Shown one piece after another: positions 52,101 through 55,100 of a DNA stretch of 64,000 bases. The stretch is taken from the NCBI RefSeq assembly GCF_013167455.1, contig NZ_CP038328.1; one strand, given 5' to 3'. A program made the position numbers. The number at the start of each line of letters is the position of its first letter. Within the stretch, counting starts at the first letter, position 1. Origin of the DNA: Escherichia coli O157:H7 (GTDB lineage: Bacteria > Pseudomonadota > Gammaproteobacteria > Enterobacterales > Enterobacteriaceae).

Positions 52101-55100
52101 CGTTTTTCTCGCGAAGTACAAGAAACCATCGTTAAGCGTCTGCAACAGGAATCCTGGTTCGTGGGCACCAGCAACTACGATCTGGCGCGTCGGCTTTCCC
52201 TCACGCCGATGGGAACACAGGCACACGAATGGTTCCAGGCACATCAGCAAATCAGCCCGGATCTAGCCAACAGCCAGCGAGCTGCACTTGCTGCCTGGCT
52301 GGAAGAGTATCCCGACCAACTTGGCATTGCATTAACCGACTGCATCACTATGGATGCTTTCCTGCGTGATTTCGGTGTCGAGTTCGCTAGTCGGTATCAG
52401 GGCCTGCGTCATGACTCTGGCGACCCGGTTGAATGGGGTGAAAAAGCCATTGCACATTATGAAAAGCTGGAAATTGATCCACAGAGTAAAACGCTGGTTT
52501 TCTCTGACAATCTGGATTTACGCAAAGCGGTTGAGCTATACCGCCACTTCTCTTCCCGCGTGCAATTAAGTTTTGGTATTGGGACTCGCCTGACCTGCGA
52601 TATCCCCCAGGTAAAACCCCTGAATATTGTGATTAAGTTGGTAGAGTGTAACGGTAAACCGGTGGCGAAACTTTCTGACAGCCCTGGCAAAACTATCTGC
52701 CATGATAAAGCGTTTGTTCGGGCGCTGCGCAAAGCGTTCGACCTTCCGCATATTAAAAAAGCCAGTTAATATCATCAGGGAGCTAATCGGCTCCCTTTTT
52801 TTACCTTTAATTCCGAAATCTTTCGCTGCATTTGCGAATTCTGCTTGTCTGATTGCAGATGCCAGGTAACATAGGTATCCCCCCATTTACGGGTGGACAA
52901 GTGTTTATTTTTTCCGACTATTAACAGAGAGAATATTATGAGCGTTGTGCCTGTAGCCGACGTACTCCAGGGCCGCGTAGCCGTTGACAGCGAAGTCACC
53001 GTACGCGGATGGGTACGTACCCGCCGAGATTCAAAAGCTGGCATCTCCTTCCTCGCCGTTTATGACGGTTCCTGCTTTGATCCTGTACAGGCTGTCATCA
53101 ATAATTCTCTGCCCAATTACAATGAAGACGTCCTGCGTCTGACCACCGGCTGCTCGGTCATTGTGACGGGTAAAGTCGTGGCGTCGCCGGGCCAGGGGCA
53201 ACAATTTGAAATTCAGACCAGCAAGGTTGAAGTTGCTGGTTGGGTTGAAGATCCAGACACTTACCCGATGGCGGCAAAACGCCACAGCATTGAGTATCTG
53301 CGTGAAGTCGCTCACCTGCGTCCGCGCACAAACCTGATTGGTGCCGTCGCGCGCGTTCGCCATACGCTGGCGCAGGCGCTGCATCGCTTCTTTAACGAGC
53401 AGGGATTCTTCTGGGTTTCAACGCCACTGATTACTGCGTCTGATACCGAAGGGGCTGGCGAAATGTTCCGCGTTTCTACGCTGGATCTGGAAAATCTGCC
53501 GCGTAACGATCAGGGCAAAGTGGATTTCGACAAAGACTTCTTTGGTAAAGAGTCTTTCCTGACCGTATCTGGCCAGTTGAACGGCGAAACCTACGCTTGC
53601 GCATTATCCAAAATTTATACCTTCGGCCCGACTTTCCGTGCTGAAAACTCCAACACCAGCCGTCACCTGGCGGAATTCTGGATGCTGGAGCCGGAAGTGG
53701 CGTTTGCTAACCTGAACGATATCGCGGGTCTGGCTGAAGCCATGCTGAAATATGTCTTCAAAGCGGTTCTCGAAGAACGCGCTGACGACATGAAATTCTT
53801 CGCTGAACGCGTAGATAAAGATGCCGTTTCACGTCTGGAACGCTTTATTGAGGCCGATTTCGCGCAGGTGGATTACACCGAAGCAGTAACCATTCTCGAA
53901 AACTGCGGCAGGAAGTTTGAAAACCCGGTTTACTGGGGCGTCGATCTCTCTTCTGAGCATGAGCGTTATCTGGCGGAAGAACACTTTAAAGCACCGGTAG
54001 TGGTTAAAAACTATCCGAAAGATATTAAAGCGTTCTATATGCGCCTCAACGAAGACGGTAAAACCGTTGCGGCTATGGATGTTCTGGCTCCGGGCATCGG
54101 TGAGATCATTGGTGGCTCCCAGCGTGAAGAGCGTCTGGACGTGCTGGACGAGCGTATGCTGGAAATGGGCCTGAACAAAGAAGATTACTGGTGGTATCGC
54201 GATCTGCGTCGCTACGGTACTGTTCCGCATTCCGGTTTCGGTCTTGGTTTTGAACGCCTGATTGCTTACGTAACTGGTGTGCAAAACGTGCGTGATGTGA
54301 TTCCGTTCCCACGAACTCCGCGTAACGCCAGCTTCTAATTTAGCGTCTACAAGAGCCAGCACCCGCTGGCTCTTTTTTATCCTTTCTGTCAAGTTATCTG
54401 TTTGTTAAGTCAATCAATCTATTTGCAACCCCGCCATAACGATCATCCTGTTACGGAATATTACATTGCAACATTTACGCACAAAAAATAACCCGCATTC
54501 TTATTGCGGATTAGTTTTTTCTTAGCTGATAGCACAATTTTCATACTATTTTTTTGGCATTCTGGATGTCTGAAAGAGGATTTTGGGCCAGGTCGATAAA
54601 GTTTCCATCAGAAACAAAATTTCCGTTTAGTTAATTTAAATATAAGGAAATCATATAAATAGATAAAAATTGCTGTAAATATCATCACGCCTCTATGGAA
54701 ATATGACGGTGTTCACAAAGTTCCTTAATTTTTACTTTTAGTTACATATTTTTTCTTTTTGAAACTAAATCTTTATCTTTGTAGCACTTTCACGGTAGCG
54801 AAACGTTAGTTTGAATGGAAAGATGCCTGCAGACACATAAAGACACCAAACTCTCATCAATAGTTCCGTAAAATTTTATTGACAGAAATTATTGACGGCA
54901 GTGGCAGGTGTCATAAAAAAAACCATGAGGGTAATAAATAATGATGAAGCGCAATATTCTGGCAGTGATCGTCCCTGCTCTGTTAGTAGCAGGTACTGCA
55001 AACGCTGCAGAAATCTATAACAAAGATGGCAACAAAGTAGATCTGTACGGTAAAGCTGTCGGTCTGCATTATTTCTCCAAGGGTAACGGTGAAAACAGTT

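Follow-up and report, generated by a model that had tools for sequence, protein, structure and literature searches.

The asnS and ompF genes of Escherichia coli O157:H7 are separated by a long AT-rich interval in which no gene is annotated, and the question is what this interval does and what accounts for its size. A sequence-only reading of the locus had described a 602-bp AT-rich spacer with promoter-proximal OmpR sites and no ORF, had predicted that it would also carry the distal F4 site known from K-12, and had regarded all of this as expected biology of low priority. We have analyzed the spacer within the 64-kb stretch of DNA that contains it (hereafter the window), and conclude that it is the O157:H7 allele of the canonical region that controls ompF both transcriptionally and post-transcriptionally, a conclusion to which we assign a probability of about 0.93. 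The finding is confirmed and already known: this is a textbook OmpR-controlled porin region, among the most thoroughly studied regulatory regions in bacteria, and the low priority given to a K-12-like ompF control region was appropriate. Its one less familiar aspect is a strong opposite-strand transcription start that public K-12 data locate on F4.

Extent and contents of the spacer

With asnS ending at 54338 and ompF starting at 54941, the spacer (54339–54940) is exactly 602 bp long and has a G+C content of 33.9% (window, 50.0%; asnS, 52.7%; ompF, 47.7%); its size and composition are as had been described. The G+C minimum in 200-bp windows (27%) is at 54600–54799. The two flanking genes are on the same strand, and the gene order pncB-asnS-ompF-aspC is that of K-12. 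There is no gene annotated within the spacer in the K-12 and O157 RefSeq records, and there are no annotated features in it in E. coli records of 100% identity (among the matches listed, n=30). The longest ORF inside the spacer is 31 aa (TTG starts), and an Rfam scan of 52500–56500 with E up to 1 returned no matches. The earlier statement that the spacer has no ORF stands in that no gene is annotated, but K-12 transcription starts map to its opposite strand (see below). The features are listed in Table 1.

Table 1. Features in and around the asnS–ompF spacer (window coordinates; positions relative to the ompF transcription start).
Feature	Coordinates	Strand	Position	Sequence or structure	Basis
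asnS CDS (asparagine--tRNA ligase)	52938–54338	+		Left flank of spacer	ORF; RefSeq annotation of identical O157 sequence
Candidate opposite-strand RNA, ~173 nt	54279–54451	-		Antisense to asnS terminator and final 60 nt of asnS	K-12 start and 3' end
asnS intrinsic terminator	54351–54380	+		10-bp stem AAGAGCCAGC/GCTGGCTCTT, 4-nt loop, T-run	Terminator scan and inverted repeat
Distal OmpR site F4	54450–54470		about -381 to -361	GTTACGGAAT ATTACATTGCA	K-12 identity, predicted
Opposite-strand -10	54458–54463	-		TAATAT; TG adjacent upstream (54465–54464); inside F4	Read from sequence
Hairpin 54489–54513 with T-runs on both strands	54482–54513			31–62 bp upstream of opposite-strand start	
Conserved -180 block	54636–54664		-195 to -167	TTAAATATAAGGAAATCATATAAATAGAT	
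CRP-like site	54699–54720		centre ~-121.5	AAATATGA-CGGTGT-TCACAAAG; abuts F1	Predicted
OmpR site F1	54731–54750	+	-100 to -81	TTTACTTTTA GTTACATATT	Pattern match, predicted
OmpR site F2	54751–54770	+	-80 to -61	TTTTCTTTTT GAAACTAAAT	Pattern match, predicted
OmpR site F3	54771–54790	+	-60 to -41	CTTTATCTTT GTAGCACTTT	Identical to K-12, predicted
ompF core promoter	54796–54831	+		-35 TAGCGA 54796–54801; -10 AAAGAT 54819–54824; start ~54831	Identical to K-12
ompF 5' leader, 110 nt	54831–54940	+		Long stem-loop; Shine-Dalgarno GAGG 54927–54930; MicF pairing ~54922–54950	
ompF CDS	54941–56029	+		Right flank of spacer	ORF; RefSeq annotation of identical O157 sequence

The OmpR pattern TTTWCNTTTNGWWAC is matched exactly at only two places in all 64 kb of the window, 54731 and 54751, which are separated by 20 bp and share the strand of ompF. 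These are F1 and F2, and with F3 they form three contiguous 20-bp sites (54731–54790), at -100 to -41 in K-12 numbering. Each is composed of two 10-bp half-sites that contain a conserved AC, which does not vary across genera, and F3 has 11 of 20 columns invariant across genera and zero polymorphism in eight E. coli alleles. OmpR sites had been read at 54731–54800; the boxes are present in 54731–54790, but the last 10 bp (54791–54800) lie between F3 and the -35. In the Yersinia pestis ompF promoter the OmpR element at -99 to -80 (TTTACATTTTGTAACACATA) is homologous to F1, and OmpR protects the region that contains it. The predicted distal site is also present, as GTTACGGAATATTACATTGCA at 54450–54470, identical to K-12. 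In K-12 numbering the site lies at -380 to -361. The pattern GTTAC-N6-TTAC has only two matches in the 64 kb, and the TGTTAC of F4 is retained in 12 of 14 Enterobacteriaceae spacers. The gap from the end of F4 to F1 is 260 bp, and F4 is stated to lie 260 bp upstream of F1 (PMC3050692); its role in K-12 is genetically defined, according to the literature.

The ompF -35 and -10 hexamers are present with the same 17-bp spacing as in K-12. They go undetected in a generic promoter scan owing to the weakness of the -35, a property expected of an activator-dependent promoter. Within 54791–54830, 22 of 40 columns are invariant across genera. The transcription start 110 nt 5' of the ATG (~54831), established for K-12, would define a leader here with 56 of 110 columns invariant across genera. 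Its predicted stem-loop has a folding energy of -20.1 kcal/mol in O157 and -23.9 kcal/mol in K-12, the leader substitutions at 54873 and 54888 reducing the predicted stability by 3.8 kcal/mol. The predicted duplex between the leader and MicF spans both the GAGG and the AUG. A conserved 13-nt MicF 5' end (GCUAUCAUCAUUA) and the structure of the ompF leader have been described (PMC1489923). K-12 Term-seq 3' ends are found at the equivalent of 54873 and 12 nt inside the ompF ORF.

Several other elements are recognizable. The asnS terminator hairpin, directly after the stop codon, has 10 pairs (6 of them G-C) followed by TTTTTT, and the stem is preserved across genera by paired changes (AGCCAGC/GCTGGCT vs GGCCAGC/GCTGGCC); the K-12 Term-seq tables list no 3' end for it. 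The segment at 54482–54513 looks like a bidirectional terminator in its sequence. The minus-strand fold of its hairpin (54489–54513) is predicted at -13.3 kcal/mol in O157, -19.7 kcal/mol in K-12 and -10.6 kcal/mol in E. albertii, and in other genera the fold is weak or takes another form, but the A-run ACAAAAAATAA is retained. We reject the hairpin as a conserved terminator, as it is stable in Escherichia only and none of the 3' ends listed by K-12 Term-seq falls at this position. The -180 block has 12 of 29 columns invariant in 13 Enterobacteriaceae spacers and is a probable protein-binding site. An upstream IHF site of ompF, located between F4 and F1 and assisting the loop, presumably lies in this -195 to -167 region, and the block matches the IHF consensus WATCAANNNNTTR weakly, at least two positions being mismatched. 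The block is at the same distance from the promoter in Erwinia, Pantoea, Pectobacterium and Brenneria, but immediately after the asnS stop codon. The CRP-like site has 13 of its 22 columns invariant among Enterobacteriaceae, and its segment TCACAAAGTTCC is nearly invariant across other Enterobacterales families. OmpR and CRP footprints have been demonstrated at Y. pestis ompF, where they overlap by 2 bp (PMC3050693).

Conservation and the O157 allele

The sequence features of the spacer and their conservation were determined directly in this analysis. We compared the loci of 25 Enterobacterales species, comprising 12 Enterobacteriaceae lineages and 13 species of other families, a set without Salmonella, Klebsiella, Enterobacter cloacae, Cronobacter, basal Enterobacteriaceae, Budviciaceae and Hafniaceae. 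There are two length classes, with spacers of 544–786 bp in the Enterobacteriaceae lineages and 245–324 bp in the other families. The proximal half, with the CRP-like site, F1–F3, the promoter and the leader, is conserved order-wide, and the distal ~300 bp with F4 is present only in Enterobacteriaceae in the sample compared. Among the 12 Enterobacteriaceae lineages and K-12, conservation peaks at the F4 TGTTAC, the -180 block, the CRP-like site, F1–F3, the core promoter and the leader, and the stretches between these peaks are variable. The asnS-porin synteny is shared with the ompF upstream regions of Yersinia, Serratia, Erwinia, Pantoea, Pectobacterium, Brenneria and Photorhabdus. In the short-form spacers the CRP-like site, F1–F3, core promoter, leader and Shine-Dalgarno sequence can all be aligned, as can the -180 block in most of them. 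However, spacers of 245–324 bp have no room for F4 and no F4 homologue, and in them the asnS terminator and the -180 block occur in the opposite order to that in Enterobacteriaceae.

Within E. coli the spacer is matched in 5,424 of 5,426 complete genomes, at a median of one place per genome, and many O157:H7 genomes are 100% identical to it. The K-12 ompF region (NC_000913.3 986,983–987,584) has the same flanking genes and a spacer that is likewise 602 bp, with ~97% identity. Alignment of the two, which the sequence-only reading had proposed as the check, finds 18 substitutions in the 602 bp, together with two 1-bp indels that compensate each other. F3, F4, the -35, the -10 and the start region are identical, and the leader structure and MicF target are shared. 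The differences (K-12 to O157) include one in F1 (G to A at 54740), one in F2 (C to T at 54766), one just 5' of F1 (A to T at 54729) and two in the leader (T to A at 54873 and C to A at 54888), as well as one in the left arm of the 54489–54513 hairpin (54492). Columns 54740 and 54766 vary among genera and E. coli strains, and the F1 and F2 substitutions look tolerated on this sequence comparison. Among eight E. coli alleles and E. albertii, 54740A, 54873A and 54888A are found only in the O157 allele of the window, and the exact 75-bp F1–F3 allele (54726–54800) is present in 345 of 5,426 complete genomes. The OmpF protein itself is identical to that of K-12 at 360 of 362 positions, the exceptions being P226L and T269I (precursor numbering). 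With the lower predicted stem-loop stability that the leader substitutions bring, the quantitative behaviour of O157 may differ from that of K-12. At its substituted positions in F1, F2 and the leader, the O157 allele is unlike most E. coli. We note that source tracking already draws on the asnS-ompF spacer for SNP markers.

Opposite-strand transcription and the size of the spacer

A K-12 Cappable-seq start at 986,694(+) in U00096.2 corresponds to 54451 on the minus strand of the window, inside F4. Its score is 74.5, and most neighbouring starts score 1.6–2.7. The start is the A of GTAAC, and six bases separate it from the TAATAT hexamer, which is 7–12 nt upstream; the TG next to this -10 is polymorphic among E. 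coli strains (54465, 54466). K-12 Term-seq records a 3' end, annotated as antisense to asnS, at 987,644(+), which corresponds to 54279. Taken together, the start and the 3' end, mapped in different studies, suggest a single RNA running from 54451 to 54279, which sequence identity alone would carry over from K-12 to the O157 window. The predicted fold of this ~173-nt RNA is -44.6 kcal/mol (z = -2.15). It is possibly the transcript called 'C0240', a name that reportedly originates in Tjaden 2002. A tiling array has also reported an opposite-strand transcript between ompF and asnS (PMC3082872). Two other types of candidate on this strand were discarded. One is a promoter-like site, TTTACA-18-TATGAT (54679 to 54650), which would have suggested a ~160-nt RNA ending at the 54489–54513 hairpin; K-12 Cappable-seq has no plus-strand start in 986,373–986,625, and the -35 is not conserved. 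The other is a set of small minus-strand proteins (a 25-aa product, MIFTAIFIYLYDFLIFKLTKRKFCF, a 20-aa ORF and a 27-aa ORF), for which no single frame is kept across genera. O157 Sakai ribosome-profiling supplements, which cover ORFs of at least 30 aa only, contain no spacer ORF, and ompF and asnS are likewise absent from them.

F4 coincides with the -10 and start of a strong opposite-strand promoter, and it may be more than a remote ompF operator, although we regard this as somewhat unlikely. If binding of OmpR-P and of RNA polymerase at F4 were mutually exclusive, high osmolarity would turn off the antisense RNA, and the activity of the opposite-strand promoter would set the ease with which F4 is filled, which would give the ompF looping model a layer so far unrecognized and connect OmpR with asnS. 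The overlap, if functional, would be a modest revision of the textbook ompF model.

These observations raise the question of whether the spacer owes part of its length to housing an independent opposite-strand unit, either an antisense RNA to the 3' end of asnS or the small-protein mRNA 'C0240'. The promoter core would then be F4 itself, with OmpR as its operator or with RNA polymerase competing with OmpR. This would supplement the control-region explanation and does not exclude it, and we consider it a tentative possibility. The strength of the K-12 start, the TAATAT with its adjacent TG, the 3' end within asnS and the tiling-array transcript all point this way, and the -10 and start are identical in the window and E. 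albertii. However, the transcript data are all from K-12 and none from O157, OmpR control of the promoter is hypothetical, and the RNA has no Rfam match. Nowhere in the spacer is conservation lower than in the body of the RNA (54381–54444). Beyond Escherichia and Citrobacter the -10 is lost, and the distal 300 bp keeps its length in genera that lack the promoter. The small ORFs are not in frame across genera, that at the 5' end being shortened from 13 codons in K-12 to 10 in O157, and the ribosome-profiling supplements (at least 30 aa only) do not add to them.

A different account of the size is that it reflects history, the distal ~300 bp being the scar of an insertion or rearrangement in the Enterobacteriaceae ancestor, such as a mobile-element remnant. 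The two length classes are consistent with this, as is the order of elements: short spacers run asnS stop, -180 block, terminator, and those of Enterobacteriaceae run asnS stop, terminator, ~250 bp, -180 block, with the inserted DNA largely poorly conserved. We nevertheless think it unlikely as an explanation of the size. The spacer occurs once per E. coli genome in the median, has no long internal or terminal inverted repeats (only short matches of low identity) and no transposase-like ORF, and most genera hold the length near 600 bp. Conserved islands (the F4 TGTTAC, the A-run and GGCAnTCTGGATG) argue for function, as does the genetically defined role of F4 in K-12, and an ancient insertion and a present regulatory function can coexist. 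It could also be supposed that the boxes arose by chance in AT-rich DNA and that the spacer is non-functional filler, as T-rich motifs are plentiful in such DNA and the loose OmpR pattern, if at most one mismatch is allowed, should turn up 0.92 times by chance in 64 kb. But the two exact matches are on the correct strand, 20 bp apart and at the position homologous to K-12 F1/F2; there is strong block-wise conservation across the 25 Enterobacterales species, and the OmpR protection in Y. pestis covers a homologous element. The K-12 alignment and the cross-species conservation effectively refute this explanation, and we give it almost no chance of being correct.

Regulatory model and related systems

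The reading of the spacer as the ompF control region leads to a model that is established for K-12 and would apply here by homology, with protein binding and looping at the O157 spacer extrapolated from the K-12 work. At low OmpR-P levels, dimers bound cooperatively at F1–F2(–F3), just 5' of the weak -35, would switch on the sigma-70 promoter. When OmpR-P is abundant, at high osmolarity, the weak distal F4, 260 bp upstream, would also be occupied, and OmpR-P bound there would interact with that bound at F1–F3 through a DNA loop, turning the ompF promoter off. A conserved CRP-like site abuts F1, and the conserved block at about -180 is probably bound by an architectural protein. In the 110-nt leader, which would form the conserved stem-loop, MicF RNA would pair with the Shine-Dalgarno/AUG segment and block translation. 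The asnS terminator lies at the left edge of the spacer.

In Y. pestis, which lacks F4, ompF expression rises with osmolarity and there is no high-osmolarity repression (PMC3050692). The F4-bearing distal half, confined to Enterobacteriaceae in the sample compared, is an evolutionary correlate of reciprocal porin regulation. The opposite-strand start resembles those of 3'-end cis-antisense RNAs and of divergent promoters known from start-site maps of whole genomes, which likewise have an opposite-strand start with a good -10 in an intergenic position; as with 'C0240', the transcripts of such antisense RNAs run across the terminator of the adjacent gene and into its 3' end. 'C0240' differs in being poorly conserved outside Escherichia and in having no RefSeq annotation in K-12 or O157. 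Another related system is the ompC-micF region (C1-C2-C3), a separate locus outside the window that we liken to ompF by description only. It is without a distal repressing site, and a divergent RNA gene shares its regulatory region, a likeness drawn from the literature; like ompF, it has tandem 20-bp OmpR sites, each of two 10-bp half-sites, immediately 5' of a weak -35.

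The asnS–ompF spacer and its regulatory sites

The region between asnS and ompF is the well-known regulatory region of the OmpF porin gene, as the sequence-only reading had correctly recognized, and textbook ompF control is the best explanation of it. Read from the window, asnS occupies 52938–54338 and ompF begins with ATGATG at 54941, so the spacer is 54339–54940 (602 bp); these boundaries and a G+C content of 33.9% (compared with 50.0% for the whole window, and with a minimum of 27% at 54600–54799) bear out its description as a 602 bp AT-rich spacer. That it contains no ORF also holds: there is no annotated gene under the spacer match in 30 E. 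coli records at 100% identity among the matches listed, nor in the K-12 and O157 RefSeq records examined, and the longest ORFs are two frames of 31 codons with TTG starts. The proposed alignment to the K-12 upstream region shows that the MG1655 spacer is likewise 602 bp, with 18 substitutions and two compensating 1 bp indels, and the gene order pncB-asnS-ompF-aspC-gloC is common to both. The spacer is present in 5,424 of 5,426 complete E. coli genomes, and many O157:H7 genomes match it at 100% identity.

Features of the asnS–ompF spacer and their conservation (mean majority frequency among Enterobacteriaceae spacers)
Feature	Window position	Sequence or remark	Conservation
asnS terminator	54351–54380
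F4 (distal OmpR site)	54450–54470	same as K-12; TGTTAC retained in 12/14	0.67
-180 block	54636–54664		0.84
CRP-like site	54699–54720		0.86
F1	54731–54750	TTTACTTTTAGTTACATATT	0.79
F2	54751–54770	TTTTCTTTTTGAAACTAAAT	0.82
F3	54771–54790	CTTTATCTTTGTAGCACTTT	0.85
-35	54796–54801	TAGCGA, same as K-12
-10	54819–54824	AAAGAT, same as K-12
-35 to -10 region			0.88
Leader		110 nt	0.91
Shine-Dalgarno	54927–54930	GAGG, within leader
Intervening stretches			0.47–0.54

Sequence features and how well they are conserved are direct observations of this analysis. The distal F4 site expected by analogy with K-12 is present, and the gap from its end to F1 is exactly 260 bp, the published distance (PMC3050692). 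Exact matches to TTTWCNTTTNGWWAC in the 64 kb window are confined to F1 and F2, on the ompF strand and 20 bp apart. The proximal OmpR boxes had been placed at 54731–54800, of which 54731–54790 corresponds to F1–F3 and the last 10 bp lie outside the boxes. The K-12 ompF transcription start is 110 nt 5′ of the ATG, which puts the window +1 at ~54831. The leader is predicted to fold into a long stem-loop, as described in the literature, and its Shine-Dalgarno/AUG segment is predicted to pair with the conserved 5′ end of the MicF RNA. By analogy with K-12, OmpR would bind and loop the DNA in the window as well: OmpR-P at F1–F2 (and perhaps F3) would activate a weak promoter, at high OmpR-P the weak distal F4 would be occupied, a DNA loop from F4 to F1–F3 would repress ompF, and MicF at the leader would block translation.

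A degenerate F1-like repeat lies 111 bp 5′ of F1 (54620–54633, TTTCCGTTTAGTTA, compared with TTTACTTTTAGTTA in F1; 86% identity); the conserved AC dinucleotides are missing from it, and it shows no conservation across genera. Constitutive promoters of minor sigma factors have been tabulated by genomic SELEX, and one peak in that table lies between ompF and asnS at 986,332 (older K-12 coordinates), equivalent to window ~54814 near the ompF core promoter; the section heading of that paper suggests the extracytoplasmic-stress sigma factor.

The region being already known, our additions are modest: exact coordinates, an F4 module limited to Enterobacteriaceae in our sample, conservation of the CRP-like and -180 blocks, substitutions specific to O157, and an opposite-strand promoter that overlaps F4 in public K-12 data.

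The O157 allele and its surroundings

The K-12 boxes differ from those of O157 at 54740 (F1) and 54766 (F2), with a further difference at 54729, just 5′ of F1. Both box columns vary among genera too, and a set of eight E. coli alleles shows polymorphism in F1 and F2 but none across 54767–54872. The exact 75 bp F1–F3 allele (54726–54800) is found in 345 of 5,426 genomes. Leader substitutions at 54873 (+43) and 54888 (+58) are peculiar to the O157 allele within the comparison of these eight alleles and E. albertii, and the stem-loop carrying both is predicted to be 3.8 kcal/mol weaker (-20.1 vs -23.9 kcal/mol). K-12 Term-seq has a leader 3′ end (987,050) at the position equivalent to 54873. The spacer already serves as a SNP marker region.

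In E. coli strain M217 (locus L086) the T-run between F1 and F2 is longer by a 1 bp insertion, at the position homologous to window 54755, which would alter F1/F2 helical phasing; in E. coli strain AR_0006 (locus L085) ompF is annotated as a frameshifted pseudogene. OmpF of the window strain (54941–56029) differs from K-12 OmpF by P226L and T269I (precursor numbering), both C-to-T changes.

Strain FDAARGOS_293 matches the window without a single base difference over 50001–64000. Window 1 to ~10100 holds the end of a lambdoid prophage that adjoins yccA, with dicB, relBE-like genes, an integrase ORF (9078–10097) and an intact exonuclease ORF of 823 codons (6319–8790); an IS3-family element, absent from the window, interrupts the exonuclease gene of FDAARGOS_293. 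In the elf/ycb fimbrial operon (37266–42706) three genes are annotated as pseudogenes (ycbF and elfC frameshifted, elfG with an internal stop) in a RefSeq record without differences from the window there.

A probable opposite-strand transcript at F4

A K-12 Cappable-seq table in U00096.2 coordinates lists plus-strand starts (window minus strand) at 986,314, 986,345, 986,373, 986,625, 986,694, 986,711 and 986,744 (scores 22.9, 2.0, 2.3, 2.7, 74.5, 1.9 and 1.6 respectively). The offset to U00096.3 is +777, the older ompF coordinates differing by this much from those of the K-12 record, and the SELEX table is consistent with it. The strong start at 986,694 is the A of GTAAC at K-12 987,471 (window 54451, minus strand), within F4, and a TAATAT -10 hexamer with an adjoining TG lies at 54463–54458 on the minus strand. 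A K-12 Term-seq plus-strand 3′ end at 987,644 corresponds to window 54279, 60 nt into asnS. From this start and end, mapped in separate K-12 studies, we infer one RNA of ~173 nt (54451 to 54279; fold z = -2.15), which suggests antisense transcription across the asnS terminator and the 3′ end of the gene; an opposite-strand transcript between ompF and asnS has been named ‘C0240’ (PMC3082872).

The promoter core in the window has the K-12 sequence, the transcript data being from K-12. Nowhere in the spacer is conservation lower than in the RNA body, and only Escherichia and Citrobacter retain the -10. An Rfam scan of the region gave no family match, and no small opposite-strand ORF is kept in frame across the genera compared. 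We therefore treat the transcript, which has no RefSeq annotation, as real but probably lineage-restricted. One could hypothesize that OmpR at F4 controls its promoter.

The K-12 start at 986,314 corresponds to window 54832 (minus strand), one base from the ompF start, and suggests a bidirectional ompF promoter. A near-perfect palindrome (54489–54513), flanked on either side by T-runs, lies a short way upstream of the opposite-strand promoter, and in it the O157 change at 54492 preserves pairing (G-U) on the minus strand only; the hairpin is stable in Escherichia only, and the K-12 data map no 3′ end to it.

Comparison across Enterobacterales

An AsnS scan with one genome per species retrieved 80 loci, and in all 25 Enterobacterales loci examined (L003–L025, L035 and L072 in the length comparison) a porin gene follows asnS. 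The spacers form two length classes, a long one of 544–786 bp, mostly ~600 bp (12 Enterobacteriaceae lineages), and a short one of 245–324 bp (13 species of Erwiniaceae, Pectobacteriaceae, Yersiniaceae and relatives). Enterobacteriaceae spacers are conserved in blocks. Short spacers have the asnS stop followed at once by the -180 block, then the asnS terminator, CRP-like site, F1–F3, promoter and leader, the terminator/-180 block order being reversed between classes. They align with the proximal half of the long form only, and thus the ~300 bp holding F4 is an Enterobacteriaceae feature in this sample. This agrees with published work on Y. pestis, where F4 is absent and ompF rises with osmolarity (PMC3050692), and where a CRP footprint adjoins the OmpR sites (PMC3050693), as the CRP-like site here adjoins F1. 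The Y. pestis ompF promoter has an OmpR consensus element at -99 to -80 (TTTACATTTTGTAACACATA), in a region footprinted by OmpR-P, and this element is the homologue of F1.
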